Positions 4,752 through 30,170 of a stretch of DNA of 35,925 bases are shown in pieces. The notes below the pieces were generated by a model. That model ran no database searches, was not told the origin of the DNA, and worked only from the letters and a program-made list of their open reading frames with translations. The stretch's first letter is position 1, and each line of letters starts with the position of its first letter. The translations under genes were made by a program, and so were the position numbers. The DNA comes from Actinomycetota bacterium (GTDB lineage: Bacteria > Actinomycetota > UBA4738 > HRBIN12), in contig JBJTYK010000074.1 in NCBI GenBank assembly GCA_046082745.1, positions 1-35,925 on the forward strand. The letters are read 5' to 3'.

Positions 4752-5437
4752 CCGCGGAACGCGTATCCGACGCCGTGCACGGTCCGCACGAAGCGGGGCT
4801 CGCCCTCCTCGCGGAGCTTCCGGCGGATGCGCGCGACGTGCGAGTCGACGACCCGACCGCCGGCGTAGTCGCGGTAGCCCCAGACGAGGTCCATGAGCTG
4901 CTCGCGCGTGAACACGACGCCGGGTCGCCGTGCGAGCGTGAGGAGGATGTCGAACTCGAGCGGCGTGAGCGCGACCTCCTCGCCCTCGAGCGTGGCGACC
5001 CGTCGCGCCGGGTCGAGCACGAGGCCGTCGGACTCGAGCGGTCCCTCGGGTTCGCTCCCCCGTTCCGCGCGTCGCAGGATCGCGCCGACGCGAAGTGCGA
5101 GTTCCCGGAGGCTGAACGGCTTCGTGAGGTAGTCGTCGGCGCCCGCCGCGAAGCCGGCGGCCTTGTCCTCCTCCTCGGCCTTCGCCGTCAGCATGAGGAC
5201 CGGGACCCAGCGTTCCCGCTGGAGCTCCGCGCAGACCGCGAGGCCGTCCATCCCGGGGAGCATCCGGTCGAGCACGACGAGGTCCGGTCGCGCGCGGGAC
5301 GCGACGGCGAGCGCCTCGGGACCGTCGGCGGCCACGAGGACCTCGTAGCCCTCGCTCTCGAGCCGGGCGCGGACGGCCTCGGCGATCGCTGCCTCGTCGT
5401 CCACCACGAGCACGCGCCGACGTTCCACGCCCGCCAT
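4748..5437 (-). CDS. OmpR/PhoB-family response regulator
   Basis: Internal start MAGVERRRVLVVDDE (cat 5435-5437). Receiver motifs DLVVLDRMLPGMDG and LTAK, then a winged-helix C-terminus LTPLEFDILLTLA...VRTVHGVGYAF. The longer track ORF extension is Arg-rich and overlaps rseP. Confidence 0.9.
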   Translation of the reverse strand: MAGVERRRVLVVDDEAAIAEAVRARLESEGYEVLVAADGPEALAVASRARPDLVVLDRMLPGMDGLAVCAELQRERWVPVLMLTAKAEEEDKAAGFAAGADDYLTKPFSLRELALRVGAILRRAERGSEPEGPLESDGLVLDPARRVATLEGEEVALTPLEFDILLTLARRPGVVFTREQLMDLVWGYRDYAGGRVVDSHVARIRRKLREEGEPRFVRTVHGVGYAFRG

Positions 5438-5466: not shown

Positions 5467-6585
5467 CTACGGGGCGAACGTGATGGGCTTCACGAGGTCG
5501 AGCCAGACGACCGAGAGCGTGAAGAGCACGAGGACCGCGGCGACCGCCGCCGAGACGGGGACGAGCCGACGCATGTCGACGGGGCGGCGGCGGATCCGCT
5601 CGACGGCGAGGACGGCGAGGTGGCCGCCGTCGAAGGGCGGCAGCGGCAGGAGGTTCAGGAGACCGATGAACACGTTCACGACGCCGAAGACGTAGGCGAC
5701 GTCGCCGAAGCGTCCCGCCGCCGCGGCCTGTCCCGCGACGCGGCTGATGCCGACGATGCTCGCCGGGTCCGTCGGACGCCGCGGGGCATCGGTGACGAGG
5801 AGTCGCACGAGCCGGTCGATGCCCTCGGGGCCGAAGATCCGGCCGAGGCTCTGCACCGTCGTGACGACCGAGTCCGCGAGGAGGCCCGCGGATCCCGTGA
5901 TCGCGCCGACGGGGCCGACCCGTTCGCGGGCGTCCTCGAGGGCGACACCGATGCGCCCGGCCCACTCGCCCTCGACGAGCGCGAGCACCGGCGCGATGGT
6001 CACCTCGAGCACCTCGCCGTCGCGCTCGATGCGGAACGGGACCGGTTCGCCGACGTGGGAACGGGTGTAGGCCACGAGCTCCTCGTCGGTGGGGCGGTCG
6101 ATGTCCCCGACGCCGACGATGCGGTCGCCGGGCTCGAGCCCCGCCGCCGCGGCGGGCGACGGCGACCCCGCGAGCGTCGGGGTGACGGCTCCCACGAGCG
6201 GAGCGACCGCGGTCGGTCGGCCGACGATGCCGAGCCACACGGCGAAGACGAGGAACGCGAGGACGAGGTGGGTCGCGGGGCCGGCGGCGATGACGATCGC
6301 CCGCTGCCAGACGGGCTTCGCCCCGAAGGTCCGCGGCAGGTCCTCCTCCGCCTCCTCGCGGTACGGGTTCATCCCGGCGATCCGGACGTAGCCGCCCGCG
6401 GGGATGAGCTTCACGCCGTACTCGGTCTCGCCGCGACGCGTCGACCAGATCCGCGGTCCGAAGCCGACGAAGAACTCCTCGACCTTGATGCCGAAGCGCT
6501 TCGCGGTCCCGAAGTGCGCCGCCTCGTGGATCACGACGACGAGGATGAGGGCGACGAAGAACGAGACCTGGGCGAGCGCGCTCAT
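5467..6585 (-). CDS. rseP: RIP (site-2) zinc metalloprotease, M50 family, RseP/Rip1-like
   Basis: Start MSALAQVSFFVALILVVVIHEAAHF (HExxH), a PDZ-like middle region, and C-terminal NLLPLPPFDGGH. The position between dxr and ispG matches actinobacterial rip1. Confidence 0.88.
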   Translation of the reverse strand: MSALAQVSFFVALILVVVIHEAAHFGTAKRFGIKVEEFFVGFGPRIWSTRRGETEYGVKLIPAGGYVRIAGMNPYREEAEEDLPRTFGAKPVWQRAIVIAAGPATHLVLAFLVFAVWLGIVGRPTAVAPLVGAVTPTLAGSPSPAAAAGLEPGDRIVGVGDIDRPTDEELVAYTRSHVGEPVPFRIERDGEVLEVTIAPVLALVEGEWAGRIGVALEDARERVGPVGAITGSAGLLADSVVTTVQSLGRIFGPEGIDRLVRLLVTDAPRRPTDPASIVGISRVAGQAAAAGRFGDVAYVFGVVNVFIGLLNLLPLPPFDGGHLAVLAVERIRRRPVDMRRLVPVSAAVAAVLVLFTLSVVWLDLVKPITFAP

Positions 6586-7777: not shown

Positions 7778-8884
7778 CTAGCCGGCGACGAGCCGCAGGA
7801 AGATGAACGAGGCCGGCAGGACGAACAGGAGCGCGTCGATCCGGTCGAGGACGCCGCCGTGCCCCGGGAGGATGTTGCCCATGTCCTTCAGCCCGAGGTC
7901 GCGCTTCAGGATGGATTCGGCGAGATCGCCGAGCGGCGCGAAGATCGCGACGACGACCGCGAGGCCGGCCGCACGACCGATCGTGTCGAGGAGCTCCACG
8001 GCCGGCGCGACCGCGCCGATCGCGAGCGCGAGCGCCGCGATCGTGCCGCCGATCGCCCCTTCCCAGGACTTCTTCGGACTCACGCTCGCGGCGAGCGGGC
8101 GGCTCCCCCACAGGTAGCCGCCGAAGAACGCGGCGGTGTCGTAGGCGATCGTGAGCCCGATGACGGACGTGAGCAGCGACGCACCGTCCGGCAGCCGCAG
8201 GATGAGCATGCCGTAGCCGGCCATCACGCCGATGTAGCCGACGCCGAGGAGCGTCATCGCGATGTTCATGACGACGTCGCGTCGATGCCCCGGGGCCTGG
8301 GCGAGGAACCACAGGAACGTCGCGATGATCGAGAGCGGCAGCATCGCGAGCATCGCCGCCTCGCCCCGCAGGTAGGCCGCCGCGAGGATGAGGAGCGCCG
8401 AGACGAGGCCGACCGCGATCGCGGGCTGGTGGTCCGCTCGGCGGAGCGCCCGGTACCACTCGTCGAGACCGACGAGCACCGCGATGCCCGCGAACCAGGC
8501 GAACCAGGGCGCGCCGAGCCAGAGGGTCCCCACGGCGAGCGCGGCGAGCACGAAGCCCGTGGCCGCCGCGAGCGGGACGTTGCGGCCCGCGCGGCGCTCC
8601 TCGCCGGAGCCGACCTCGAGCGCGGTGGGGTCCTGCCAGCTCGGCCCCGCGGTCCCCTCGGGACCGATCGTGATCGTGCGGTCACGCGGCGCGGCGTCGG
8701 ACTCCCGGCCCTCGATCTCGCCGAGGAGCGCCGTGATGCTCCCGAACTCGCCCGAGGGGGGCGGCGCGCCGGTCACGCGGACGTCGTCGTCATCCACGGG
8801 CTCCTCGGGCGCGCGCGGCAGCCCGATCGGCGGCTCGTCCGACGTGTCGATGCGGATCGTGCCGGTGTCGAAGACCGATGGCAC
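7778..8884 (-). CDS. cdsA: Phosphatidate cytidylyltransferase with a long acidic/Pro-rich N-terminal region
   Basis: C-terminal signature SPKKSWEGAIGG...PLGDLAESILKRDLGLKDMGNILPGHGGVLDRID plus multiple TM segments. The coding signal continues upstream in another frame (see the 8885-9137 feature). Confidence 0.9.
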   Translation of the reverse strand: MPSVFDTGTIRIDTSDEPPIGLPRAPEEPVDDDDVRVTGAPPPSGEFGSITALLGEIEGRESDAAPRDRTITIGPEGTAGPSWQDPTALEVGSGEERRAGRNVPLAAATGFVLAALAVGTLWLGAPWFAWFAGIAVLVGLDEWYRALRRADHQPAIAVGLVSALLILAAAYLRGEAAMLAMLPLSIIATFLWFLAQAPGHRRDVVMNIAMTLLGVGYIGVMAGYGMLILRLPDGASLLTSVIGLTIAYDTAAFFGGYLWGSRPLAASVSPKKSWEGAIGGTIAALALAIGAVAPAVELLDTIGRAAGLAVVVAIFAPLGDLAESILKRDLGLKDMGNILPGHGGVLDRIDALLFVLPASFIFLRLVAG

Positions 8885-9137
8885 CGAGGGCTCGGGCTCG
8901 CGGCGCTCGGAGAAGTACGCGGCGGCCCGCTCGAGGTCGTCCTCGGACGGTTCGCGGCGGAGGTCGTCCTCGCCGTTGCGGATCGGCGGCAGCGGCGGCG
9001 GCGGGCGCGCCCTCGGGCTCCCGACCGGCGGGCCGCTCCGTCCCGGATCGGTCCTCGGGCCAGTCCACGTCGCGGATCGGCGCGAAGAACTTGTCGAGGT
9101 CCTCGAAGAGATCTTCGCGCTTCTCGTCGTCCGCCAC
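8885..9137 (-). other. Probable true 5' part of cdsA, split from the body by a 1-nt frame change near 8981-9015
   Basis: A GTG at 9137, 1 nt after the frr stop, opens MADDEKREDLFEDLDKFFAPIRDVDWPEDRSGTERPAGREPEG with high GC3. After a GCC/GCG-rich run, this frame loses GC3 bias. The cdsA frame gains it there (PPPLPPIRNGEDDLRREPSEDDLERAAAYFSERREPEPSVPSVFD). Confidence 0.5.
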
Positions 9138-14776: not shown

Positions 14777-15559
14777 TCAGCGCGCGTCGTCGCCCTCCGT
14801 CTCCTCGAACGCCCGCCGGAGGAGACGGAGGGCGTGACCGTGCACCTGCGACGTCCGCGAGTGGGAGATGCCGAGCAGTCCGGAGATCTCGAGGAGCGTC
14901 ATCCCGACGAGGTCGTGCAGCCACACGACGCGGGCCTCGCGTTCGGGCAGGGATCCGAGTGCGTTCGCGAGGATGGCGCGCGTCTCGCCGCCGTCCTCGG
15001 CGGCGAGCGGATCGGCGTCGCGGGTCGAGAGGAGCTCCTCGAGCGGGAGGATGACCGCGTTCTCGACGTCGGCTCGGACGCGTCGGTAGCGCGCGCGGGA
15101 GATCCCGAGGCGCTGCGCGACCTCGGCCTCGGTCGGGATGCGACCGAGCGAGGCCTCGAGCTCGGCGGACGCCGTCTCGACGCGACGCGCCGCCGCGCGC
15201 ACCGAGCGGGGCGCCCAGTCGTTCGCGCGCAGGGCGTCGAGCATCGCCCCGCGGATCCGCACCGCGGCGTACGTCGAGAACGCGCAGCCACGGCGCGCGT
15301 CGAAGCGTTCGATCGCGTCGACGAGGCCGAACGTGCCGTCGGAGACGAGGTCCTCGAGCTCGACCTCGTCGGACAGGAGCGTCCGCGCGCGCCGCGCGAG
15401 CGAACGGACGAGCGGGAGGTAGTGGACGATGAGGACGTCGCGCTCGGCGACGTCGTGGCGCGCGTGGTACCGCGCCCACACGTCGGCGACCTGCCGATCC
15501 CGGTCGTGGACCCGTCTCCCCCGACCGCGCCCCCTCGCGCGTTCGGACCCCGTGCTCAC
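14777..15559 (-). CDS. whiG: RNA polymerase sigma factor, FliA/WhiG family
   Basis: Regions 2-4 are recognisable (LVSDGTFGLVDAIERFD, FSTYAAVRIRGAMLD, LLEISGLLGISHSRTSQVH). Its location near xerC and rpsB parallels Streptomyces whiG. GTGA overlap with the xerC stop. Confidence 0.7.
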   Translation of the reverse strand: MSTGSERARGRGRGRRVHDRDRQVADVWARYHARHDVAERDVLIVHYLPLVRSLARRARTLLSDEVELEDLVSDGTFGLVDAIERFDARRGCAFSTYAAVRIRGAMLDALRANDWAPRSVRAAARRVETASAELEASLGRIPTEAEVAQRLGISRARYRRVRADVENAVILPLEELLSTRDADPLAAEDGGETRAILANALGSLPEREARVVWLHDLVGMTLLEISGLLGISHSRTSQVHGHALRLLRRAFEETEGDDAR

Positions 15560-16485
15560 GCCCTCGGATGGCTCCTTCCGTACGCCTCGAACAGTCGGGA
15601 GCGCGACACGTGGGTGTAGCGCTGCGTCGTCGCCACGCTCGCGTGGCCAAGGAGTTTCTGGACGGCACGGAGATCCGCGCCGCCCTCGAGGAGGTGCGTC
15701 GCGAAGGAGTGCCGGAACGTGTGCGGCGTGACGCGCTTGCCGGTCGCGCGCGCCAGCCGCTCGATCATCGCCCGCACATCGCGCGGGGTGAGCGGCTTGC
15801 GACGGCGGTTGAAGAAGAGGAGATCGCCGGCGCCGCGTTCCGGCGCGAGGACGTCGCGGCCGTCGGCGAGGTAACGCTCGACGGCATCGGCGGCGAGGTC
15901 GGCGATCGGCACCTCGCGTTCCTTCGAGCCCTTGCCCATCACGAGCACCCGGCCGCGACCGAGGTCGACCCGGTCGCGGGTGAGCCCCGTCACCTCCGAG
16001 ACGCGGAGCCCGGATCCGTAGAGGAGCTCGAGAACGGCGCGGTCGCGGAGCGCCACCGCGCGGTCGATCGGCCCCGCATCGGGTGCGGCTGCCGGCGCCT
16101 CGACCAGGTCGGCGGCCTCCGCGGGTCGGAGCACCGTCGGCAGCCGCGACACGATCTTCGGCCGCCCGAGGAGCGTGGCGGGGTCCTCGCGGACGGCGGC
16201 CTGGGCGTGCGCCCAGCGGAAGAACGTGCGGATCGCGCCGACCCGACGGGCGATCGACGCGCGGGCGTAGCCGAGGGTCGTCTGCTGCGCGAGGAAGCGG
16301 CGGAGGTCGTGGTAGGTGGCGGTGCGGAACGCGCCCTGGCCGCGCTCGAGGAACTCGGCCAGCTGCGCGAGATCGCGTCGATAGGCGGCGACGGTGTTCG
16401 GCGACAGGTGCCGCTCGCGCTCGAGGTGCGCGACGAAGCGGTCGATGAGGGCTGCATCGGCGTTGGCGCGGCTCGTCATGGCCAT
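15556..16485 (-). CDS. xerC: Tyrosine recombinase XerC/XerD family
   Basis: Start MAMTSRANADAALIDRFVAHLERERHLSPNTVAAYRRDL. Catalytic-region motifs LLYGSGLRVSE, HTFRHSFATHLL and LGHASVATTQRYTH. Confidence 0.88.
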   Translation of the reverse strand: MAMTSRANADAALIDRFVAHLERERHLSPNTVAAYRRDLAQLAEFLERGQGAFRTATYHDLRRFLAQQTTLGYARASIARRVGAIRTFFRWAHAQAAVREDPATLLGRPKIVSRLPTVLRPAEAADLVEAPAAAPDAGPIDRAVALRDRAVLELLYGSGLRVSEVTGLTRDRVDLGRGRVLVMGKGSKEREVPIADLAADAVERYLADGRDVLAPERGAGDLLFFNRRRKPLTPRDVRAMIERLARATGKRVTPHTFRHSFATHLLEGGADLRAVQKLLGHASVATTQRYTHVSRSRLFEAYGRSHPRA

Positions 16486-16507
16486 CTGCCTCCGGGGGGA
16501 GGGGGAC

Positions 16508-16536
16508 CTTCTACCAATTCGCGGGGAGGCGTTCAA
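16508..16536 (-). promoter_or_regulatory. Candidate sigma-70-type promoter for xerC-whiG
   Basis: The minus strand reads TTGAAC, a 17-nt spacer, then TAGAAG. It lies in the locally AT-richer 47-nt dprA-xerC gap. The -35 box overlaps the dprA stop. Motif match only. Confidence 0.3.
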
Positions 16537-17465
16537 GTTCGCTCCCCCCTCGGGACGGAACCGCGCGTGGCCGCCGACGCGCGCCGCTCGAACCGACCGC
16601 CCACCGCGCGCACGAGTCCCTTCAGTTCGAGCGCGAGGAGCACCGGGAGCGCCTCCGCGACGCCGACGCCGAGCGCTTCCGCGACGGCCTCCGGGAGCGT
16701 GCGATCGCCGACGGCCTCGAAGGCGCGGCGCTCGGCCTCGCTCAACCCGACGTCGGCGGCGGACGCCTCGGCCGGGACCTCGATCCCGAGTTCGGCGAAG
16801 ACGTCGTCGACGCCGCGCACGAGCGCCGCCCCCTCGCGGATGAGCGCGTTCGGGACCGCGGAGAGCGGACTCGCGATCGACCCCGGGACCGCCATCACCG
16901 TGCGTCCGAGGTCGAGCGCGTGTTCCGCCGAGATGAGCGAACCGCTCCCCTGCTCCCCCTCGACGACCACGAGTGCGCGGGCGAGGCCCGCGACGATGCG
17001 GTTCCGTGCCGGGAAGCGGAACGGCATCGCCGGCACGCCGGGCGTGTACTCGCTCACGACGGTGCCGGTCGCGGCGATGCGCTCGATGAGCGGCGCGCTC
17101 GACGCCGGGTACGCCACGTCGATCCCGGACCCGAGCACCGCGACGGTGGGCGCACCCGCGTCGAGCGCGCCCTCGTGCGACGCCGAGTCGATGCCGCGTG
17201 CCGCGCCGCTCACGACGATCCACCCGACCTCGCCGAGCCGGCGGCCGAGCCCGCGCGCGATCTCGCGCCCCAGCGGGCTGCACGCCCGCGCGCCGACGAT
17301 CGCGATGAGCCGCTCCGCGGACGGGAGCGGGCGACCGCGGAGGAACAGCCCCGCGGGCGGATCGTGGAGATCGAGGAGCTGTCCGGGATACCCATCGCTC
17401 CCCCGCGCGACGTAGACGGCCGAACGGCGTGCCGGGTCGTCGGTCGGGACGCGGTCAGCCGACAC
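16533..17465 (-). CDS. dprA: DNA-protecting/processing protein DprA (Smf)
   Basis: YPGQLLDLHDPPAGLFLRG..., IVGARACSPLG, VVSGAARGIDSASHEGAL, FPARNRIVAGLA and a C-terminal winged-helix-like tail. The GTG 17465 start overlaps comM by 11 nt, so the start is uncertain. Confidence 0.85.
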   Translation of the reverse strand: MSADRVPTDDPARRSAVYVARGSDGYPGQLLDLHDPPAGLFLRGRPLPSAERLIAIVGARACSPLGREIARGLGRRLGEVGWIVVSGAARGIDSASHEGALDAGAPTVAVLGSGIDVAYPASSAPLIERIAATGTVVSEYTPGVPAMPFRFPARNRIVAGLARALVVVEGEQGSGSLISAEHALDLGRTVMAVPGSIASPLSAVPNALIREGAALVRGVDDVFAELGIEVPAEASAADVGLSEAERRAFEAVGDRTLPEAVAEALGVGVAEALPVLLALELKGLVRAVGGRFERRASAATRGSVPRGERT

Positions 17466-19425: not shown

Positions 19426-19455
19426 TTGACCCGGAGCGCATCGGCGGAGCAGACT
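19426..19455 (+). promoter_or_regulatory. Candidate promoter for the secreted-protein gene
   Basis: TTGACC (19426-19431), an 18-nt spacer, then CAGACT (19450-19455). A GAGAGGAAGGGGA Shine-Dalgarno region follows before ATG 19520. Motif match only. Confidence 0.35.
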
Positions 19456-19519
19456 CCGGGTCCGATCCGCAGGAGGCGCGGCCTTCCCCCCTCGCCGAAC
19501 CGAGAGGAAGGGGACGACC

Positions 19520-20539
19520 ATGCGGCACCGCACCTCTGGCCGACGGGAGCGGCGGCGGGCCGTGGCCACGGTGGTCGTCGGCGCGCTCGCCCTCGCAGCA
19601 GTGCTTCCGGGCATCGCGGCGGCGCTCACGACCGACGACGCCCCGACGACGTGGAACTGGCAGCTCGACGCCCAGGGCTCCGACGACGAGCCGAACCAGA
19701 AGGACCTCACCGCCCACGCCGCGGCGCTCGGGCAGGACGACACGTTCTGGGTGACCTGGAAGTGGGACGACACCCGCTTCCCCGGTAACAACAGCGGGGA
19801 CGCATGTTCGCTCTTCGACACGGCGCCCTTCGACGCGCTCGTCGATGCCGCGGTCTGCGTCACCGTGAAGGGGATCGACGCGGAACAGGTGCGCACATCG
19901 CCGCGGGTCTACCTCTGCGACGACGACTCGGAGGACCGCTGCTTCGGGGCTCGGCTCGTCGGTTCCGGCTCCGACCTCTCGACCGCGTGCTCGGTCGATT
20001 CGACCGCGCCGGAGGCCTTCGGCGGGAGCACGGCCGACACCCAGGCGATCTGCCACGTCGACCTCACTGAGATCGACGCGGGGAGCACCCCGATCCTGCG
20101 CAACACCTGCTCGTACCCGTCGCAGGAACCGAACTCCGACCCATCGGACTGCGTCCTCGCCGGCGTCGTGCCGCCGATCGACACGACGCCCTCGACCACG
20201 GCCGAGACCACGGCGATCCTCGCCGACGACGTGGCGCTGCCGTCGAACGCGGTGGGAACCGTGGTGTTCCGGCTCTACGCGGACGATCCAGCCGCCGAGA
20301 CCGAGACGCTCTGCGACACGCTCCTGTACGAGTCGGGCGAGATCGCCGTGGCGGACGGGACGGCGTCGTCGATGGATGACCCGAACCTCGCCGAGCCGGG
20401 CCCGTACACCGAGACGATCACGGCGGACACCACCTACAGCTGGGAGGCGCACTTCACGTCGGGGACGGACTTCTATCTCGACGCCGACGCGCCCTGCGGC
20501 GAGACGACGACCGTCACCGTCGCGACCGTCGCGCCCTGA
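19520..20539 (+). CDS. Secreted Cys-rich, Asp/Thr-rich protein of unknown function
   Basis: N-terminal RRERRR n-region, a hydrophobic core and AAA-L cleavage-like site. The mature part has 9 Cys. It has high GC3, a good SD and a strong downstream hairpin. No family recognised with confidence. Confidence 0.65.
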   Translation: MRHRTSGRRERRRAVATVVVGALALAAVLPGIAAALTTDDAPTTWNWQLDAQGSDDEPNQKDLTAHAAALGQDDTFWVTWKWDDTRFPGNNSGDACSLFDTAPFDALVDAAVCVTVKGIDAEQVRTSPRVYLCDDDSEDRCFGARLVGSGSDLSTACSVDSTAPEAFGGSTADTQAICHVDLTEIDAGSTPILRNTCSYPSQEPNSDPSDCVLAGVVPPIDTTPSTTAETTAILADDVALPSNAVGTVVFRLYADDPAAETETLCDTLLYESGEIAVADGTASSMDDPNLAEPGPYTETITADTTYSWEAHFTSGTDFYLDADAPCGETTTVTVATVAP

Positions 20540-22290: not shown

Positions 22291-22965
22291 TCAGCGCTCC
22301 CCGAGGAGGTCGGGGCGGTTCCTGCGGGTCTTCGCGAGTGCGGCCTCCCGGCGCCAGCGATCGACCTCGGCGTGGTTGCCGGACAGGAGCACCTCGGGCA
22401 CGGCCATCCCGCGGAACTCGGCGGGTCGCGTGTAGTGCGGGTGGTCGAGGATGCCGTCCTCGAAGGAGTCCCGCCGGTGCGACTCCTCACGGCCGATCAC
22501 GCCCGGCAGCAGCCGCGTCACCGCCTCGATGAGGACGAGCGCGGGGACCTCGCCGCCGGAGAGCACGTAGTCGCCGATCGAGACCTCCTCGGCCGGAAGC
22601 CCCTCGACGACGCGCTCGTCGATGCCCTCGTACCGCCCGCAGATGACGACGAGCGCGGGCTCGGCCGCGAGCTCGCGCACGAGGGCCTGGTCGAGGCGTC
22701 GGCCCGCGGGCGACAGGAGGATCGTCCGGCCCGCCCGCGGGCCGAGCGCCTCGACCGTCGCGAAGATCGGCTCCGGCTTCATCACCATCCCCGGTCCCCC
22801 ACCGAACGGCTCGTCGTCGACCTGCCGGTGGCGGTCCTCGGTGTGGTCGCGCGGGTCGTGGAGGCGCACCTCGACGAGCCCCCGGTCGATCGCTCGCCCG
22901 AGGAGGCTCTCGGCGAGCGCGCCGCGGAGGATGCCCGGGAAGATCGTCACGACGTCGATGCGCAC
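22291..22965 (-). CDS. trmD: tRNA (guanine37-N1)-methyltransferase
   Basis: [11 protein letters not shown]..., [28 protein letters not shown] and [14 protein letters not shown] start at 22965. Confidence 0.95.
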
Positions 22966-23026: not shown

Positions 23027-25273
23027 ATGGGAACGGTTGCCGCGACCCTCCGACGCCTCACCCGCCGTCGGCGCGACGACGTCTACGACCGCATCCGGGA
23101 CGCGATCCGGGGCGCGCACCGCGTCCCCCGCGGCACGCGCCCCGGCGACCACCTCGCGCTCACCGCGCCGACGATCCGCATCGAGCGACCGGGCGGCGTC
23201 TGGGCGTCGGTCGACGCAGCGCTCCGCCCCGAGGCGTGGCGACCGCGGCTCGCCGACGGCGTCGAGGTCGTGGACTTCCCCTCCCGGCGCGGTCGCGCCC
23301 ACGCGATCATCGCGAGCCCCGATCGCCTCGAGCACTTCCGCGTCGAACCCTGGGAGGCGCGGCTCGCGCGACGGATGGACGGCACGCGGAGCGTCCAGGA
23401 CCTCATCGTCGAGCAGCTCGAGGAGGAGGGTGAGTTCGACGCGGCCGCCGTGACGCGACTCGTGACGCTCCTGCGCAGCGAGGACCTCCTCGCGACCCGC
23501 GCGGTGAACCTCCGGAAGGTCATCCGGCGCGCGCTCGACCCGACCCCGACGCGCCGCGCCCGCGTCTCGGAGTTCGGCCGGAGCCTGCGGGTGGACTGGG
23601 CGGGCGTCGAGCGGCTCACCCGATTCCTCCACCGCACCGTCCTCCGCCACGCCTTCCGCCCGGCGGCGGTCCTCGCCTGCGGGATCGTCTCCGCCGCGGG
23701 GTTCGCGGCGTTCACCGTGCTCTCCGAATCCCATCGCTTCCGCCTCGGCGACCCGTCCTACGCGGAGATCGCGGTGCTCCTCATCCTCGCCTTCTTCCTC
23801 ACCGCGGCGCACGAGCTCGGCCACGCGACGGCGCTCGTCCACTACGACCGGCGGGTCATCAGCTCCGGCGTGGAACTCCTCTTCGCGACGCCGACGTTCT
23901 TCGTGGACGCCTCCGACGCGCAGACGCTGCCGAAGCGCGAGCGCATCGTCCAGGCGTTCGCCGGTCCGTGGGCCGAGCTCGTGATGGCGGGGACCGCGTC
24001 GCTCATCGTGTTCGCCGCACCCGACGCCCCCGCCGCCGTCACGCTCTACCGGTTCGCCCTGTCGAACTACTTCTTCATCTTCCAGAACTTCATCCCGCTG
24101 CTGCGTCTCGACGGGTACTGGATGCTCTCCGACGCGATCGACGAGGCGGACCTGCGCGGCGCGTCGTTCCAGTTCGTCCGCCACGACCTCTGGTACCGAC
24201 TCCGGCACCGGGAACCCATCCGCCCGCAGGAATGGCTCCTCGTCGCCTTCGCGGTCCTCGGGCCGCTCTACGGGGTCTACGCCTTCTACGCGGCGGTCCT
24301 CGCCTGGGACCTCGGTCAGGTCGTCGGGGACCTCTGGGCGAACGGCGCGCCGTCGCGGCTCCTCCTCGCGCTCCTCGTCCTCGTCTTCGCCGGGCCGGTG
24401 ATCCGCGCGGGCTTCGACCTCCTGCGAACGCTTTTCCGCCGCCTCCGCGCGCTCGCCGCGCGCGTGCGCTTCCGCCTCCAGCGGAGCTGGCGCGCGGAGG
24501 CGGCGGAGCTCGTCGGGGCCCTGCCGGGCTTCGACGGACTCGGCGACGACGCGCGCGCGGCGATCGAACGCGCGGTGCGCCTCGGGACGTACGCTCCCGG
24601 CCAACCCGTCTTCCGCCAGGGCGACCGCCCGACGGCGTTCTACGTCGTGCGCAGCGGCGAGGTCGCCGTCGAGGACCTCGATCCGCACACCGGCGAGGTC
24701 CGGGTCCTGCGGACCCTCGGTCGCGGGGCCTCGTTCGGGGAACTCGGGCTCCTCGACATGGCGGCGCGCTCGGCGACCGTGCGCGCGACCGCGGAGACGC
24801 AGCTCTTCGAGGTCGGCAAGAGCGCGTTCGACCGGCTCCTGGCCGACACGATCGAGGCGCCACGGTTCGCGCCGTCGATGCAGAACTTCGCGGAGCTCCG
24901 GAGCCTGCCGACGTTCCGCCACCTGCCGACGGAGCGGCTCGCCGAGGTCCTCGAGCGCGGTGGCTGGGCGGGCTTCGAGACCGGCGACGTCATCGTCCAG
25001 CAGGGCGAGCCGGCCGACGCCTTCTACGTCATCGCCCGGGGTCAGGCGGTCGTCGACATCGACGGCGAGTTCGTCCGCGCGCTCGGCCAGGGCGCCTACT
25101 TCGGCGAGATCGCCCTCCTGCACGACGTGCCCCGGACCGCGACCGTCACCGCCGCGAGCGCGATGCGGGTCTTCCGGCTCGACCGCGAGGGGTTCGAAGG
25201 GGTCATCGCCGGCCAGTTCGACCGCGGGTTCCCCACTCACTACCGACGTTCCCTGCGGGACATGGAGCACTGA
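23027..25273 (+). CDS. Membrane M50/site-2-protease-like protein with a PqqD/RRE-like N-domain and two C-terminal cyclic-nucleotide-binding domains (paralog A, 748 aa)
   Basis: GGGAGGA SD lies 10 nt before ATG 23027. Motifs are HELGH (23810-23824) inside a TM helix, NFIPLLRLDG, and two CAP-type cNMP motifs (FGELGLLDMAARSATVRA and FGEIALLHDVPRTATVTA). The N-terminal MDGTRSVQDLIVEQLEEEG...LLRSEDLL segment is PqqD-like. Confidence 0.82.
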   Translation: MGTVAATLRRLTRRRRDDVYDRIRDAIRGAHRVPRGTRPGDHLALTAPTIRIERPGGVWASVDAALRPEAWRPRLADGVEVVDFPSRRGRAHAIIASPDRLEHFRVEPWEARLARRMDGTRSVQDLIVEQLEEEGEFDAAAVTRLVTLLRSEDLLATRAVNLRKVIRRALDPTPTRRARVSEFGRSLRVDWAGVERLTRFLHRTVLRHAFRPAAVLACGIVSAAGFAAFTVLSESHRFRLGDPSYAEIAVLLILAFFLTAAHELGHATALVHYDRRVISSGVELLFATPTFFVDASDAQTLPKRERIVQAFAGPWAELVMAGTASLIVFAAPDAPAAVTLYRFALSNYFFIFQNFIPLLRLDGYWMLSDAIDEADLRGASFQFVRHDLWYRLRHREPIRPQEWLLVAFAVLGPLYGVYAFYAAVLAWDLGQVVGDLWANGAPSRLLLALLVLVFAGPVIRAGFDLLRTLFRRLRALAARVRFRLQRSWRAEAAELVGALPGFDGLGDDARAAIERAVRLGTYAPGQPVFRQGDRPTAFYVVRSGEVAVEDLDPHTGEVRVLRTLGRGASFGELGLLDMAARSATVRATAETQLFEVGKSAFDRLLADTIEAPRFAPSMQNFAELRSLPTFRHLPTERLAEVLERGGWAGFETGDVIVQQGEPADAFYVIARGQAVVDIDGEFVRALGQGAYFGEIALLHDVPRTATVTAASAMRVFRLDREGFEGVIAGQFDRGFPTHYRRSLRDMEH

Positions 25274-25370
25274 CCGTGGCGGCCCCCGGTCCGATGTCCC
25301 GGGAGGTTGCGCGGGCGCGCCCTCGGGAGCAGGATGCGCCGACGGGCCGACCGGACAGGAGGGGAACCGC

Positions 25371-27671
25371 GTGGAGTGGCTGATCCTCGGCTTCGCGTGT
25401 GCGGCGACCTACGTCATCGCCCGTGACTTCGTCCGCGAACGTCGCTGGCGCGCCTCCCGACCGGACATCGCCGGGGCGATCGTCGCAGGACTCGCCGCCG
25501 CGGCACCCGCGACCGCCGCCGCGCCGCTCCGCGACCTCCTCGGCGACCAGGGCGGCCTCGAGGTCGGCGGCGAGCCCGGGGGGCTCTGGGCGGCGATGGC
25601 GGAGCGGATCGACCCGTCGTCGTGGTTCCCGCAGCTCGCCGCGGGCGTCGAGGTCATGGAGTTCCCCTCGCGCTCGGGCAACGACTACGCGCTCGTGCGC
25701 AACCCCGAGGGCGACTCGCACTACACGCTCGAGATCTGGGAGGCCCGACTCGCGCAGCTCATGGACGGGACCCGGTCGATCAAGGACCTCATCCTCCTGC
25801 GCCTCGAGGAGGAGGGCGACCTCGACCCCGCCGCGATCGCCGCGCTCATCACGATGCTCCGCGTCGAGGGCCTCCTCGAGCCCCGCGCCGTGAACGCGGA
25901 GGTCCTCCTGCGGGAGCGCATCGACCCGTCCTCGCCCGGCCGCAGGAAGCTGAAGGAGTTCGCGAAGACGCTCCGCCTGCGCTGGATGGGCGCCGAGCGC
26001 TTCACCCGCTGGGCCTACGGGACGGGCCTCCGCTTCGCGTGGTCGAGGCCCGGCGCCCTCGCGTGCACAGCCGTCGCGGCCATCGGGATGGTGCTCTTCG
26101 TGCTCACGGTCCGTTCCGGGACATTCTCCTTCAACTACGACCGCGCCCCCATCGAGACCACGCTGCTCATCGTCCTCAGCTTCTTCCTCACCTTCTGCCA
26201 CGAACTCGCGCACGCGATGGCCCTCGTCCACAACCGGCGACGGGTGATCTCGGCGGGCTTCCTCGTGTTCTTCGGCTCTCCGGCGTTCTTCGTCGACGCG
26301 TCGGACGGGCAGATGATCCCCCGGCGGGGGCGCATCTTCCAGGCGTTCGCCGGTCCCTTCGCCGAGCTCGTCCTCTGCGGCGTCGCCTCCGTGTTCCTCT
26401 TCCTGTTCCCGGAGTCCCCGGCCGCCCCGCTCCTCTACCGGTTCAACTTCGTGGGCTACATCGTGATCTTCGAGAACCTCATCCCGCTCATCAAGCTCGA
26501 CGGGTATTGGATCCTGAGCGACCTCATCGGCGAACCGACGCTCCGCGAGGTCTCGACCCAGTACCTCCGGCACGAGCTCTGGGACCGTATCCGCAACCGC
26601 AAGGGCCTCACGCCGTACGAATGGTCGCTCGTCGTGTTCGCCCTGCTGGGGACGGCGTTCGCGATCTCGATGACCTGGATCGGCCTCGTCTTCTGGCAGC
26701 AGCTGTTCGGCGAGATCGTCGCGAACCTCTGGCGGGGCGGTTGGGGCACCCGCCTCCTGCTCATCGCGTTCGTCCTCGTGTTCGGCGGACCGCTCATCCG
26801 CGCCGGCATCGACGCCCTCCGGGCGGTCGTTCGGCGCGCGAAGGCGGGGGTCGCGGCGATCCGCTTCCGCCTCGAACAGTCGTGGCGGGTCGAGGCGGCG
26901 GAACTCATCGGCGCGCTCCCGGCGTTCGGCGAGCTCGACGAGGACGTCCTCTCCGACCTCGCCGGTCGGGTCCAACTCGATCAGTTCTCCGCGGGTCAGC
27001 CCGTGTTCCGCCAGGGCGACCAGCCCGAGGCGTTCTACGTCGTGCGCTCCGGCGCGGTCGCCGTCGAGGACGTCGATCCCGACACCGGGAACACCCGGAT
27101 CCTGCGCACGCTCGGGCGGGGCGACTCGTTCGGGGAACTCGGGCTCCTCGACATGGCCCCCCGTTCCGCCACGATCCGCGCCATCGAGGAAACGCAGCTC
27201 TTCGTCGTCGGCAAGAGCGCCTTCGACCGGCTGCTCGCGGACGCGATCGAGGCACCGAAGTTCGCGCCCTCGATGCAGAACTTCGCGGAACTCCGGGCGC
27301 TGCCGACGTTCCGACGGCTGGCGACCGATCGCCTCGCCGAGGTCCTCGAGCACGGCGAGTGGCGGACGTTCGTCGCGGGCGACGTCATCATCGAGCAGGG
27401 CGAGCCCGGCGACGCCTTCTACGCCATCCAGCGCGGCCAGGCGGACGTCGCCGTGGACGGCGAGTTCGTGCGGACCCTCGGCCAGGGCTCGTACTTCGGC
27501 GAGCTCGCGCTCCTGAACGACACCCCGCGCACGGCGACCGTCACCGCCGCGAGCGCGATGCGGGTCTTCCGGCTCGACCGAGAGGGGTTCGAGCAGGTCG
27601 TGGCGGAACAGTTCGAGGGTAGCGCCATCCCGGCGCACTACCGACGCTCGATGCGCGACATGGAGCACTGA
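25371..27671 (+). CDS. Paralog B of the PqqD-like / M50 / 2x cNMP-binding membrane protein (766 aa), with an extra N-terminal hydrophobic segment
   Basis: AGGAGGGG SD before GTG 25371. Motifs are HELAH, NLIPLIKLDG, FGELGLLDMAPRSATIRA and FGELALLNDTPRTATVTA. It is collinear with paralog A and ends with the same RDMEH. Confidence 0.82.
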   Translation: MEWLILGFACAATYVIARDFVRERRWRASRPDIAGAIVAGLAAAAPATAAAPLRDLLGDQGGLEVGGEPGGLWAAMAERIDPSSWFPQLAAGVEVMEFPSRSGNDYALVRNPEGDSHYTLEIWEARLAQLMDGTRSIKDLILLRLEEEGDLDPAAIAALITMLRVEGLLEPRAVNAEVLLRERIDPSSPGRRKLKEFAKTLRLRWMGAERFTRWAYGTGLRFAWSRPGALACTAVAAIGMVLFVLTVRSGTFSFNYDRAPIETTLLIVLSFFLTFCHELAHAMALVHNRRRVISAGFLVFFGSPAFFVDASDGQMIPRRGRIFQAFAGPFAELVLCGVASVFLFLFPESPAAPLLYRFNFVGYIVIFENLIPLIKLDGYWILSDLIGEPTLREVSTQYLRHELWDRIRNRKGLTPYEWSLVVFALLGTAFAISMTWIGLVFWQQLFGEIVANLWRGGWGTRLLLIAFVLVFGGPLIRAGIDALRAVVRRAKAGVAAIRFRLEQSWRVEAAELIGALPAFGELDEDVLSDLAGRVQLDQFSAGQPVFRQGDQPEAFYVVRSGAVAVEDVDPDTGNTRILRTLGRGDSFGELGLLDMAPRSATIRAIEETQLFVVGKSAFDRLLADAIEAPKFAPSMQNFAELRALPTFRRLATDRLAEVLEHGEWRTFVAGDVIIEQGEPGDAFYAIQRGQADVAVDGEFVRTLGQGSYFGELALLNDTPRTATVTAASAMRVFRLDREGFEQVVAEQFEGSAIPAHYRRSMRDMEH

Positions 27672-27682
27672 GGGAGGACGAC

Positions 27683-27895
27683 ATGGATTGCTGGCACTGC
27701 AGGACCACCGCGGTCGGGGCATGCCGCTTCTGCGGTCGAGGGGTCTGCGAGGACCACGCCCAGACCCAGCCGTACGTGCTCGAGCTCTTCAAGGGAAGCG
27801 GCCCCACCCGGGCGCTCGTCGTGGAGGACGCCCTGTTCTGCGGCGCCTGCACGCCGAGGCCCGACCCGCTCGACCTGCCCGAGCTCGACGTGTGA
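27683..27895 (+). CDS. Small Cys-rich zinc-ribbon protein (70 aa), DUF2180-like by recollection
   Basis: MDCWHCRTTAVGACRFCGRGVCEDH ... LFCGAC contains three CxxC-type pairs. GGGAGGA SD lies 5 nt before the ATG, and the start is 12 nt after the paralog B stop. Confidence 0.6.
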   Translation: MDCWHCRTTAVGACRFCGRGVCEDHAQTQPYVLELFKGSGPTRALVVEDALFCGACTPRPDPLDLPELDV

Positions 27896-27906
27896 CGGGA
27901 GTCACG
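27891..27906. promoter_or_regulatory. Crp-type operator, TGTGA-N6-TCACG (9 of 10 consensus positions)
   Basis: tgtgacgggagtcacg overlaps the zinc-ribbon stop codon. Its centre is about 112 nt upstream of the peptide-1 ATG. Confidence 0.5.
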
Positions 27907-28010: not shown

Positions 28011-28142
28011 ATGGCCGGAGCGAAGAAGGTCCAGCCGAAGAAGGCTGCGTCGAAGAAGGCCGCGCCGAAGCGCGCGGCGACCAAGAGCACTCGGGAGAGC
28101 CTGCGGGGCGGCAAGAAGTCGATGGCGATCCTCCCGGTCTAG
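28011..28142 (+). CDS. Lys-rich small peptide 1 (43 aa), the most divergent copy
   Basis: MAGAKKVQPKKAASKKAAPKRAATKSTRESLRGGKKSMAILPV. High GC3 and its own terminator. The SD (GAGGGAG) is only 2 nt from the ATG, so expression is less certain. Confidence 0.55.
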   Translation: MAGAKKVQPKKAASKKAAPKRAATKSTRESLRGGKKSMAILPV

Positions 28143-28222: not shown

Positions 28223-28238
28223 TGTGACGCCCGTCACA
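28223..28238. promoter_or_regulatory. Perfect Crp/CAP consensus palindrome TGTGA-N6-TCACA
   Basis: ttgtgacgcccgtcaca lies in the 248-nt gap before peptide genes 2-4. A CAGAGT -10 candidate at 28260-28265 would centre the site at -41.5. Additional TCACA (28257-28261) and TGTGA (28270-28274) half-sites lie just downstream. Confidence 0.65.
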
Positions 28239-28390
28239 GTCCACCGGCACCGGCCATCACAGAGTGGGTTGTGACCGAGGGCACCCCCCGGGAGTGACCC
28301 GCGATGCGGCGGGACTCGGTTGCGCGGGGGAGGATGCCCGAGTCAGGCGCACCGACGAGCAGCGAGGATCGGAGAGGGGAGGCGGAGCAC

Positions 28391-28513
28391 ATGGCGGAGA
28401 AGAAGAAGGTCCAGCCGAAGAGGGCGGGCAGTTCCGCGGCCGGCGCGAAGAAGGTCGCGAAGAAGTCCACCCGCGAGAGCCTGCGAGCCGCCAAGGGCAG
28501 GCCAATCGCGTAG
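28391..28513 (+). CDS. Lys-rich small peptide 2 (40 aa)
   Basis: MAEKKKVQPKRAGSSAAGAKKVAKKSTRESLRAAKGRPIA. GGAGG SD upstream and high GC3 (AAG, GTC and GCG codons). Confidence 0.7.
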   Translation: MAEKKKVQPKRAGSSAAGAKKVAKKSTRESLRAAKGRPIA

Positions 28514-28552: not shown

Positions 28553-28672
28553 ATGGCAGAGAAGAAGAAGGTCCAGCCGAAGAAGGCGACGGGCGCCGCT
28601 GCCGGCAAGAAGAAGGTCGCGAAGAAGTCCACCCGCGAGAGCCTGCGAGCCACTCGCTCCAAGATCGGCTAG
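28553..28672 (+). CDS. Lys-rich small peptide 3 (39 aa)
   Basis: MAEKKKVQPKKATGAAAGKKKVAKKSTRESLRATRSKIG. AAGGAGG SD lies 9 nt upstream. It is below the size cut-off of the ORF track and was found by hand. Confidence 0.7.
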   Translation: MAEKKKVQPKKATGAAAGKKKVAKKSTRESLRATRSKIG

Positions 28673-28731: not shown

Positions 28732-28851
28732 ATGGCGGAGAAGAAGAAGGTCCAGCCGAAGAAGGCGGGCAGTTCCGCGGCCGGCGCGAAGAAGGTCGCG
28801 AAGAAGGCCACCCGCGAGAGCCTCAGCGCGAAGGTCGGGAAGGTGATCTAG
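28732..28851 (+). CDS. Lys-rich small peptide 4 (39 aa)
   Basis: MAEKKKVQPKKAGSSAAGAKKVAKKATRESLSAKVGKVI. AAGGAGG SD lies 8 nt upstream, and a terminator hairpin follows. Confidence 0.7.
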   Translation: MAEKKKVQPKKAGSSAAGAKKVAKKATRESLSAKVGKVI

Positions 28852-28953: not shown

Positions 28954-29658
28954 ATGTCGCCCTTGGACCAGACCGCGGTCGTCGAGAAGGCCATGACCCA
29001 GTCCCCCACCTTCGTGGGGGTCCCCCGCGCGCACGTGAAGGACTTCGCCGCGCAGGGCCGGGTCCGCGCCTACCGCCGAGGCACGTACCTCTGCCAGCAG
29101 GGCGACGAGGCCGACCGGGTCTACTTCCTCGTGAAGGGCCGGGTCGAGATCAGCTCGATCTCCCTCACCGGCAACCGGATCCTCCACGCGACGGTCGACC
29201 AGCCCCAATTCCTCGGGGAGCTCCCCGTGCTCGGCGAGATGGATCGCACGGCGGACCTCCTCGCCCTGGAGGACAGCGAGGTCTGGAGCATCGCGGCGGG
29301 CCGGTTCCTCGACTTCGTGACCTCGGAGCCGTCCGCCGCGCGCCAGGTGCTCGCGGCGCTCGCCCGCCAGGTCCGCGAGCACGAATCGTTCGTGGACGAC
29401 CTCCTGTTCCTCGACCTGAAGGGCCGGGTCGCCAAGCGCCTCCTCCAGATGGGCACCTCGACGCTCTCGGAGCTCCCCGAGGACGGCTCCTCGATCCCGG
29501 CCGTCACCCACGCGGACCTCGCGAGCCTGTGCGGCGGGAGCCGGGAGAACGTCTCGCGGATCCTCTCGGACCTCCAGCGCCGGGGCGTCGTCTCACGCGA
29601 GGGCTCGCGCTACGTCCTCGCGAAGGTCTCGTACCTCGCGCGGCTCGCCGCGCTCTAG
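28954..29658 (+). CDS. Crp/Fnr-family cNMP-binding transcriptional regulator
   Basis: A cNMP-binding barrel (FLGELPVLGEMDRTADLLA) plus a C-terminal HTH. GRVAKRLLQMG and HADLASLCGGSRENVSRILSDLQRRG resemble mycobacterial Crp. The recognition helix is R-E-x-V-x-R, as in E. coli CRP (RETVGR). The alternative start ATG near 28993 is not excluded. Confidence 0.85.
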   Translation: MSPLDQTAVVEKAMTQSPTFVGVPRAHVKDFAAQGRVRAYRRGTYLCQQGDEADRVYFLVKGRVEISSISLTGNRILHATVDQPQFLGELPVLGEMDRTADLLALEDSEVWSIAAGRFLDFVTSEPSAARQVLAALARQVREHESFVDDLLFLDLKGRVAKRLLQMGTSTLSELPEDGSSIPAVTHADLASLCGGSRENVSRILSDLQRRGVVSREGSRYVLAKVSYLARLAAL

Positions 29659-30170
29659 CCTTCGTCGGGGGCGGTGAGCCCCGGCAGGTCTCGGACGACG
29701 ATCCGCCGCTGCCCGACGTCCACGGAGACGAGCACGTCGCGGAGCACCGGCACGAGGGTCTCCTCCCCCGCCCGCACGACGCTCCAGACGTCGTTCGCCG
29801 GGGTGTGGATGACATCGGAAAGCACGCCGAGGTCGCGGCCGGCGTCGGTCGCGACCGCGCACCCGACGAGGTCGTGGTCCCACCAGGAGCCCTCGGGAAG
29901 CGGCGGCGAGGACGACGCCGGCACGACGAGGGTCTTCCCCGCGAGGGCCTTCGCGACCTCGCGGTCGGCGACGCCCGCGAACGTGACGAGCAGGAGCCCG
30001 CGGTGGCGGCGGGCGGCGGTCACGGTGAGCGGGCGGCCGTCCTCGAGGTGGACCGTCGCGCCGGGGTCGAAGCGGCTGGCGACGTCGGTGAGGACGACGA
30101 CCGCGAGTTCGCCCCGCACCCCGTGGGGGCGGCTGATGCGGCCGACCGCGACGGTCGGCTCCGCGGTCAT
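29655..30170 (-). CDS. rimM: 16S rRNA processing protein RimM
   Basis: VAVGRISRPHGVRGELAV..., a PRC-barrel C-terminus, and operon position after the KH protein. Its stop shares CTAG with the convergent crp-like stop. Confidence 0.9.
   Translation of the reverse strand: MTAEPTVAVGRISRPHGVRGELAVVVLTDVASRFDPGATVHLEDGRPLTVTAARRHRGLLLVTFAGVADREVAKALAGKTLVVPASSSPPLPEGSWWDHDLVGCAVATDAGRDLGVLSDVIHTPANDVWSVVRAGEETLVPVLRDVLVSVDVGQRRIVVRDLPGLTAPDEG

Follow-up and report, generated by a model that had tools for sequence, protein, structure and literature searches.

Control of site-2 proteases (S2Ps) is known to be exerted through PDZ domains, CBS domains or partner proteins, and no description exists of one controlled directly by a cyclic nucleotide. 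In SpoIVFB the nucleotide-binding CBS domain lies C-terminal to the catalytic core, on the cytoplasmic side of the membrane. S2Ps fused to an RRE, the module that docks the leaders of peptides that are made on ribosomes and modified after translation (RiPPs), are so far known only from the final step of daptide biosynthesis. There, MpaP, an intramembrane site-2 protease with an RRE attached to its N-terminus, removes the leader peptide; this RRE-dependent leader peptidase was found through co-occurring short open reading frames (ORFs) (bioRxiv 10.1101/2023.03.08.531785). Daptide clusters also encode MpaB (DUF-RRE), MpaC (dehydrogenase), MpaD (aminotransferase) and MpaM (methyltransferase), and their precursors have an ELExMEAP leader and a C-terminal Thr (bioRxiv 10.1101/2023.03.08.531785). 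In addition, the peptide exporter HetC of Nostoc PCC 7120 has a functional cyclic-nucleotide-binding (CNB) domain, for which ppGpp binding was reported in vitro (PMC10986499). Here we describe a stretch of 35,925 nt from an Actinomycetota bacterium (contig JBJTYK010000074.1, assembly GCA_046082745.1), called the window in what follows, in which two adjacent genes, A and B, encode proteins that join an RRE, an S2P-like membrane core and two CNB domains. They belong to a cassette composed of the following genes:

23027..25273, + strand: gene A, RRE, S2P-like core and two CNB domains; 748 aa, ATG start behind GGAGG
25371..27671, + strand: gene B, same architecture as A; 766 aa, GTG start behind AGGAGG
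27683..27895, + strand: DUF2180 Cys/His-rich (AN1-like) zinc protein, 70 aa, with an acidic C-terminal tail; PF09947 match of 25.8 bits (cut-off, 22.2 bits)
28011..28142, + strand: pep1, small basic peptide, 43 aa, MAGAKKVQPKKAASKKAAPKRAATKSTRESLRGGKKSMAILPV
28391..28513, + strand: pep2, small basic peptide, 40 aa, MAEKKKVQPKRAGSSAAGAKKVAKKSTRESLRAAKGRPIA
28553..28672, + strand: pep3, small basic peptide, 39 aa, MAEKKKVQPKKATGAAAGKKKVAKKSTRESLRATRSKIG
28732..28851, + strand: pep4, small basic peptide, 39 aa, MAEKKKVQPKKAGSSAAGAKKVAKKATRESLSAKVGKVI
28954..29658, + strand: CRP/FNR-family regulator, 234 aa, CNB and HTH_Crp_2 domains with an intact GE...RTA cassette

The order protease, DUF2180 gene, peptide-bearing gap and Crp gene was found in the window, in 80/80 genome loci and in the metagenome loci of informative length, and it persists where the protease belongs to subfamilies only 34–37% identical to A. 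The genome loci are the best 80 of the 217 GTDB species with relatives (one genome per species was scanned), and all of them are metagenome-assembled genomes (MAGs) from uncultured Actinomycetota. Both the architecture of the protease, an RRE, an S2P core and two CNB domains, and its association with this cassette can be taken as very highly probable. The initial annotation had placed A and B in a frame of regulated intramembrane signalling; the conserved DUF2180 gene, the peptides with CRP boxes and the CRP regulator itself point instead to RRE-guided peptide processing. The reading that we favour, to which we assign a probability of roughly 0.55, is a composite in which peptides expressed under CRP are docked by the RRE and cleaved at the S2P site under the gating of the CNB tandem. 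Within it, we infer that RRE and peptide pair, that the peptide is cleaved, which ligand is bound, which way the gating works and what DUF2180 does.

Comparison with MpaP/DapP revealed the same N-terminal RRE followed by a membrane core with HExxH and LDG motifs, and likewise adjoining short ORFs in which the N-terminal region is conserved and the remainder variable. The NCBIfam family NF041824 (daptide intramembrane metalloprotease) was the best NCBIfam match for both proteins (A, E 1e-45; B, E 3e-43) and could be aligned over practically its full length, positions 2–370 of the 379 of the profile. However, the scores of 156.4 bits for A and 148.4 bits for B are about half of the equivalog cut-off of 300 bits. 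Unlike MpaP/DapP, A and B have a C-terminal CNB tandem, genes for MpaB, MpaC, MpaD and MpaM are missing, and the peptides are polycationic and hydrophilic instead of hydrophobic with a terminal Thr. Moreover, the obligatory DUF2180 and CRP partners are absent from daptide clusters as described. With these scores and differences, the cassette is not a daptide cluster.

With SpoIVFB and RseP the proteins share the catalytic core and the principle of a soluble regulatory domain controlling a membrane-embedded site, and their nucleotide-binding domains are placed as in SpoIVFB; in contrast, the sensor of A and B is a PKA-R-like CNB tandem and not a CBS or PDZ domain, an RRE is present, and the candidate substrates are soluble peptides and not membrane-tethered regulators. 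Weak matches were obtained with TIGR03896 'cyc_nuc_ocin' (A, E 1.5e-9; B, E 2e-14), a family of CNB proteins from export systems of the bacteriocin type, and with this family and HetC the cassette has in common a CNB domain tied to a peptide-processing machine. HetC, however, is an ABC exporter with a C39 cysteine peptidase and a single N-terminal CNB domain, whereas A and B are S2P metalloproteases without a transporter. A weaker NCBIfam match, to the YydH/LiaK RiPP protease family (NF058609, E about 1e-8), covered only about 120 residues. YydH/LiaK is likewise a membrane HExxH protease, one that matures a small ribosomal peptide, but it has no CNB domains, and the cassette lacks a radical-SAM epimerase and an ABC transporter. 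By analogy with these systems, we propose that the cassette may work like the MpaP leader peptidase, regulated in the style of the CBS domain of SpoIVFB or of HetC.

The features identified within the two proteases are given below:

23243..23506, + strand: RRE (PqqD-like) peptide-docking domain of A, residues about 73–160, beta-beta-beta-alpha-alpha-alpha
23660..24421, + strand: six-helix S2P-like membrane core of A, residues 212–465
23810–23824 and 24086–24115, + strand: catalytic motifs HELGH and NFIPLLRLDG of A
24518..25231, + strand: tandem CNB domains of A, residues about 498–735
26199–26213 and 26475–26504, + strand: catalytic motifs HELAH and NLIPLIKLDG of B

Both ORFs lie where the initial annotation had put a pair of tandem paralogs, and their products are 58% identical across 698 residues. 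Every motif quoted at that time was found again, in A at residues 262 (HELGH), 354 (NFIPLLRLDG), 570 (FGELGLL..RSAT) and 692 (FGEIALL..RTAT), and in B at residues 277 (HELAH) and 369 (NLIPLIKLDG), with phosphate-binding cassettes at 587 and 709. The three-part architecture then suggested was also borne out, the N-terminal domain being an RRE, the core S2P-like and the C-terminus a CNB tandem of the PKA-R/PKG type.

The N-terminal domain, previously described only as peptide-recognition-like, was identified as an RRE by its fold. In an AlphaFold2 model of A residues 54–490 (pLDDT 81.7, pTM 0.73) its elements (E27-31, E39-43, E50-53, H55-63, H70-81 and H86-98) had pLDDT values of 82–91. A Foldseek search with this model retrieved TbiB1 with its bound leader peptide (5v1u), a lasso-peptide B1 protein (6jx3) and PqqD (5sxy), with probabilities of 0.99–1.0 and target TM-scores of 0.60–0.65, TbiB1 reaching 1.0 and 0.65. 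The domain is acidic, with a median net charge of −6 in the family, and, judging from co-occurrence and charge complementarity, it may bind the conserved basic head of the co-encoded peptides.

For the membrane core, the Pfam Peptidase_M50 profile (PF02163) gave 21.8 bits with A and 23.9 bits with B, just under the gathering score of 27.2 bits; most orthologs carry a precomputed PF02163 match. In addition, a profile of 13 core sequences had the Methanocaldococcus S2P structure 3B4R as its sole significant match in the PDB (E 0.0049), the alignment running from HExxH to NxxPxxxxDG with the second motif of A and B opposite NLIPAFPMDG of mjS2P. Taken together, the sub-threshold Pfam scores, the matches of the orthologs and the profile match to 3B4R indicate that the core is a divergent branch of M50/S2P rather than a non-member. 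Of the two domain assignments made initially, the cNMP-binding one was recovered twice per protein, while the M50 one fell below the threshold in Pfam and was recovered with the core profile. In an alignment of 32 protease family members the zinc ligands and the catalytic Glu (H262, E263, H266 and D362) are invariant, as are N354 and P357; in the second motif, NxxPxxxLDG, the N, P, L, D and G are all invariant.

Hydropathy and the models predict six core helices. The HExxH and LDG motifs fall in predicted membrane helices, as expected from the hydrophobic segments noted earlier, with HELGH and HELAH at the end of such helices. A single long predicted helix (A residues 441–497) connects the last membrane helix with CNB-A; in mjS2P the first and last core helices are involved in the lateral gate. 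Because the number of helices is even and the N-terminal anchor of B and of most orthologs follows the positive-inside pattern, the RRE and the CNB tandem are both predicted to be cytoplasmic, in the compartment where peptides that lack a signal sequence would be located.

The two C-terminal CNB domains recognized by the initial annotation were confirmed by Pfam, since cNMP_binding (PF00027) was found twice per protein (E 3.8e-41 for A and 3.3e-46 for B). A model of full-length A (pLDDT 76.5) matched the CNB-A/B tandem of PKG and PKA regulatory subunits (E about 1e-18), and Foldseek with it returned CNB structures only. The phosphate-binding cassettes are intact, and G571, E572, R581 and A583 in the first and G693, E694, R703 and A705 in the second are invariant in the 32 members. 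The RSAT and RTAT cassettes do not distinguish ligands. It is plausible that cAMP or cGMP is coupled directly to proteolysis.

The DUF2180 gene, which starts 12 nt past the stop codon of B, was found by tblastn directly after the protease gene in 80/80 genome loci and in the window, and the metagenome loci of informative length have it as well. Its cysteine pattern is AN1/C5HCH-like, with seven Cys and one His invariant. The identity of the DUF2180 protein in the genome loci was 69–93%, compared with 43–52% for the protease and 56–69% for Crp. In databases it forms 482 clusters, annotated as hypothetical throughout.

The four peptide genes of the window each have a strong Shine-Dalgarno sequence, and their products have the form MAEKKKVQPKK...AKKVAKKSTRESL followed by a variable tail. 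Such peptide ORFs, one to five behind Shine-Dalgarno sequences, were found in 76/76 gaps, these being the loci with a readable interval between the DUF2180 and Crp genes. The head is conserved as MA[ED]KKI[TSQ]PK, a spacer of 12–15 residues and then A[AT]RV[ST] or a variant such as TRESL. The tails are hypervariable, rich in Lys and Arg and often built of short tandem repeats (RQTKRQTK..., KKLSHKKLSH..., ARKARK..., NARNAR... and KKTRVGAKKTRVGA... are examples); in the protease subfamilies 34–37% identical to A they read ARSARSARS... or RQARQARQ.... In 88 peptide genes the G+C content at codon positions 1, 2 and 3 was 0.51, 0.52 and 0.91, and for their cysteine-free products the medians are 46 aa (length) and +12.5 (net charge). 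The peptides matched no family in Pfam or NCBIfam, and no conserved core pattern hinting at a modification site was seen in them. A profile search with the peptides gave at least 175 clusters of 37–88 aa, all annotated as hypothetical and from Actinomycetota MAGs.

The genomic context of three of these profile matches was inspected; two lie inside a cassette and the third (locus L162) is an orphan. This peptide gene (positions 5100–5249 of ENA ERZ25039478 contig_1359; ...MAEKKITPQQP...AAARVTMKKLSHKKVSRKKVSRKQAAR) has no cassette protease within 5 kb, and it has degenerate GTGA-N6-TCAC boxes upstream and a GC terminator hairpin downstream. Since the orphan keeps both boxes and hairpin, the peptides may form a dispersed regulon.

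The CRP regulator, at the same position in related loci with 56–69% identity, is similar to E. coli CRP from end to end (E 2.7e-25). When TGTGA-N6-TCACA was searched with at most one mismatch, the whole window contained exactly 2 boxes, against 0.09 expected, and both are inside the cassette. Together with two hairpins, they are located as follows:

27891..27906, + strand: CRP box 1, TGTGACGGGAGTCACG, one mismatch; centre 112 nt upstream of the pep1 start codon
28165..28194, + strand: 13-bp perfect GC hairpin, likely terminator after pep1; z-score −3.6
28223..28238, + strand: CRP box 2, TGTGACGCCCGTCACA, perfect; centre 160 nt upstream of the pep2 start codon
28869..28898, + strand: 13-bp perfect GC hairpin, likely terminator of the pep2-3-4 unit; z-score −4.6

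At least one box lies upstream of the peptides in 76/76 loci, and in 45 of them there is a perfect one. In the 42.7 kb of gap sequence 106 boxes were counted, compared with 10 in the remaining 1.12 Mb of locus DNA. They are frequently paired at 22–24 nt, and additional peptide units have their own boxes. In the window, more GTGAC and TCACA half-sites come after box 2. When 17 upstream regions were aligned, conserved GTGAC/GTCAC half-sites were seen to form an array, of which GTGACGAACG(T/A)CAC is an invariant part, and a GC hairpin was seen immediately ahead of the Shine-Dalgarno sequence. This array and the position of the hairpin suggest that several regulator dimers bind and that the 5' untranslated region is structured. 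The spacing of the half-sites is about 22 nt, as can be seen at 28223–28300 of the window and at 5970–6130 of locus L024. Direct folding gave no hairpin between pep2, pep3 and pep4; as hairpins follow only pep1 and pep4, the peptide genes make up two short transcription units. Between the DUF2180 gene and crp, Rfam detected no known RNA, and scans for sigma-70 and terminator consensus sequences gave nothing useful.

The distribution of the fusion was studied with the N-terminal 490 residues of A as query, which gave about 200 protein clusters, nearly all of 720–790 aa with PF02163 and PF00027 and with only generic annotations ('cyclic nucleotide-binding domain-containing protein', 'CRP-like cAMP-binding protein/Zn-dependent protease' or similar). 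In a HMMER search the RRE-S2P module alone was found in 7931 cluster representatives at E<=1e-3 and in 165 at E<=1e-30; of the nearest 149 representatives, 79 have at least 650 aa, and 64 of these contain CNB domains. Genomes of 217 GTDB species contain relatives, and so do at least 565 confirmed metagenome stretches. The fusion, which the initial annotation had considered unusual, is therefore not rare; it is uncharacterised, since the cluster annotations are generic and no description of the system was found in the literature searched for S2P and CNB fusions, RRE-S2P, DUF2180 and the cassette. Some relatives of 1000–1150 aa (P0158, P0164, P0172 and P0177) have, after the RRE-S2P part, some six additional membrane helices, then a soluble stretch whose fold is unknown and finally the two CNB domains, and P0167 has an additional AhpC/TSA redoxin domain. 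One of the loci, L013 (JBLMXP010000256.1), comes from a MAG labelled Planctomycetaceae, yet it has the trmD / cassette / rimM layout of the Actinomycetota loci, and the label is probably a binning error.

The nearest relative of A (P0001, locus L001) is 75–76% identical to it. Two tandem copies of the protease were found only in the window and L001, with a single copy at every other locus, and A and B arose from one cassette component by a tandem duplication specific to this lineage. The window and L001 also have 4 and 5 peptides with their two proteases, compared with 1–2 peptides where there is one protease, and this joint expansion fits a matched set of enzymes and substrates. The hydrophobic segment near the N-terminus of B (residues 3–21, nt 25377–25433), absent from A, is real; the initial annotation had taken it as a hint of a different topology or of a heteromeric pair. 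Most single-copy orthologs start in the same way, with a hydrophobic segment and then a basic patch (MQYLILAA...RQRR); the segment is thus the family norm, which alone is no argument for a special topology or a heteromer, and as a mark of special topology in B it was discarded. In addition, B is consistently a few points closer to the single-copy orthologs than A. From these N-termini and the higher similarity of B, we conclude that B is the ancestral-type copy and A a diverged duplicate that has lost the N-terminal anchor.

The cassette comprises 4–8 genes and about 6.6 kb in the window, where the genes that flank it are housekeeping genes. In about half of the genome loci, including the window, it is located between trmD and rimM. 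On the opposite strand, it splits the usually contiguous rpsP-KH-rimM-trmD-rplS cluster (flanks at 22291–22965 and 29655–30170, both on the − strand), and at L005, L030, L043 and L078 it stands beside an intact trmD-rimM pair. The only conserved neighbours in the 80 loci reflect housekeeping synteny (DUF2469, trmD, lepB, rpsP, rnhB, rplS and SMC); conservation in them does not extend to any transporter or exporter, tailoring enzyme, cyclase or sigma/anti-sigma pair. ORFs resembling region 4 of extracytoplasmic function (ECF) sigma factors (..FFDDLTQAETARRLG..) were seen a few hundred bases upstream of the protease at two loci of distant subfamilies, L133 (3740–3946, + strand) and L160 (3128–3334, − strand), and none was seen beside the cassette in the genome loci.

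Across most of the window, which carries core housekeeping genes, the G+C content is 72–77%. Two ORFs on the + strand had no Pfam match at E<=1e-5; that at 19430–20536 (369 aa) has a G+C content at the third codon position of 0.92 and a strong coding signature, and for that at 15433–17412 (660 aa), with a value of 0.82, coding is less certain. A Guanidine-II (mini-ykkC) match of Rfam at 8933–8975 on the − strand (34.7 against 32 bits, E 0.0018) precedes a CdsA-type cytidylyltransferase ORF (7781–8884, − strand), unlike the usual context of guanidine exporters, and it may be a GC-rich false positive.

The mechanism that we propose starts with nucleotide-bound CRP, which would bind the box arrays and turn on the peptide transcripts, which are short and bounded by terminators. 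The RRE, acidic and cytoplasmic, would dock the conserved basic head of the peptides, as RREs do with RiPP leaders, and the S2P site would cut them, probably near the boundary between head and tail. A nucleotide, most likely cAMP, would bind the CNB tandem and gate substrate access or catalysis, the signal passing via the continuous helix to the last membrane helix. One messenger could in this way control both the synthesis and the maturation or turnover of the peptides, as in a feed-forward loop, and the protease might require DUF2180 as a subunit or adaptor.

Several observations weigh against this mechanism. The link between peptides and protease rests on genomic association, and the characterised substrates of S2Ps and of MpaP are hydrophobic or helical, whereas the peptides described here are extremely hydrophilic. 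At least one peptide gene, that at L162, is an orphan, which fits an action in trans but also an independent function of the peptides. DUF2180 is the most conserved part of the cassette and is left unexplained by the model, and without a conserved exporter or tailoring enzyme the fate of the product is likewise unexplained. As to the protease itself, the PF02163 scores stay below the threshold, Foldseek with the model of residues 54–490 did not find an S2P structure for the core, and CNB domains can take other ligands, such as ppGpp in HetC.

It could also be that the peptides are not substrates at all, but polycations of the CRP regulon, binding for example nucleoid, ribosome or membrane, and that the protease acts on another part of the cassette, such as DUF2180 or Crp, or clears the peptides so that the response is reset. 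Their own CRP boxes and terminators, the orphan copy distant from any protease, and the extreme charge and fast-evolving repeats, which suggest a bulk-charge function, agree with this, and DUF2180 as target agrees with a very strongly conserved gene immediately downstream (12 nt in the window). We nevertheless consider it rather unlikely, because the strict association of an RRE protease with short ORFs of conserved head and variable tail is what characterizes a pair of RRE and leader, the numbers of peptide and protease genes rise together in the window and L001, and neither DUF2180 nor Crp has a hydrophobic segment or any other mark of an S2P substrate.

A somewhat lower probability, one that makes it clearly unlikely, is given to classical regulated intramembrane proteolysis, in which the CNB-gated protease, responding to cAMP or cGMP, would cut a membrane-anchored regulator encoded elsewhere, such as an anti-sigma factor, with peptides and DUF2180 unrelated to it. 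The catalytic motifs of the S2P core are intact, ECF-sigma-like ORFs lie upstream of the protease at L133 and L160, and the CBS domain of SpoIVFB, which binds ATP, is a precedent for nucleotide-sensing cytoplasmic domains in S2Ps. However, a membrane-anchored candidate substrate, a sigma factor or an anti-sigma factor is not conserved with the cassette, the N-terminal domain, being an RRE, is a module that docks soluble peptides, and the best family matches are leader peptidases of RiPPs and not RseP or SpoIVFB. Furthermore, the co-occurrence of the partners in 80/80 loci is hard to attribute to chance, and the organism already has a canonical RseP: the third S2P reported in the window by the initial annotation is indeed there, as an M50 protein with PDZ domain at 5470–6585 (− strand) beside dxr.

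Finally, a daptide-like or conventional RiPP cluster making a modified and exported antimicrobial peptide, to which the top NCBIfam match and the presence of several precursor-like genes, whose products have a conserved head and a variable tail, might point, was rejected as very improbable: 156 bits are far under the cut-off, the aminotransferase, dehydrogenase, methyltransferase, DUF-RRE protein and ABC exporter are absent from the window and not conserved in related loci, and the peptides lack the ELExMEAP leader, a hydrophobic core, the invariant C-terminal Thr (their C-termini are varied), Cys and any conserved core pattern of the modification type.

Beyond the composite of CRP-driven peptides, RRE docking, S2P cleavage and CNB gating, a broader conclusion can be offered tentatively, as one that we hold somewhat less probable than its opposite. 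The cassette may represent a new class of polycationic repeat peptides, made by ribosomes and matured by a protease, that is widespread among uncultured soil Actinomycetota and doubly gated by one messenger, through CRP boxes and through a CNB-gated, RRE-guided protease with DUF2180, and with the released tails as effectors. These tails would be intracellular polycations acting on nucleoid, ribosome or membrane, or else antimicrobial peptides. If the proposed mechanism is true, the protease would be the first S2P activated by a cyclic nucleotide, and thereby a mechanism wiring cAMP to proteolysis; the peptides would be a new hypervariable cationic family of at least 175 sequence clusters; and DUF2180 would receive its first function and its first functional context. 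The cassette suggests that the docking-plus-cleavage module of the daptide proteases has been reused, without tailoring chemistry, for a peptide system under signalling control, which would constitute a module of the CRP regulon in a large uncultured part of the Actinomycetota.

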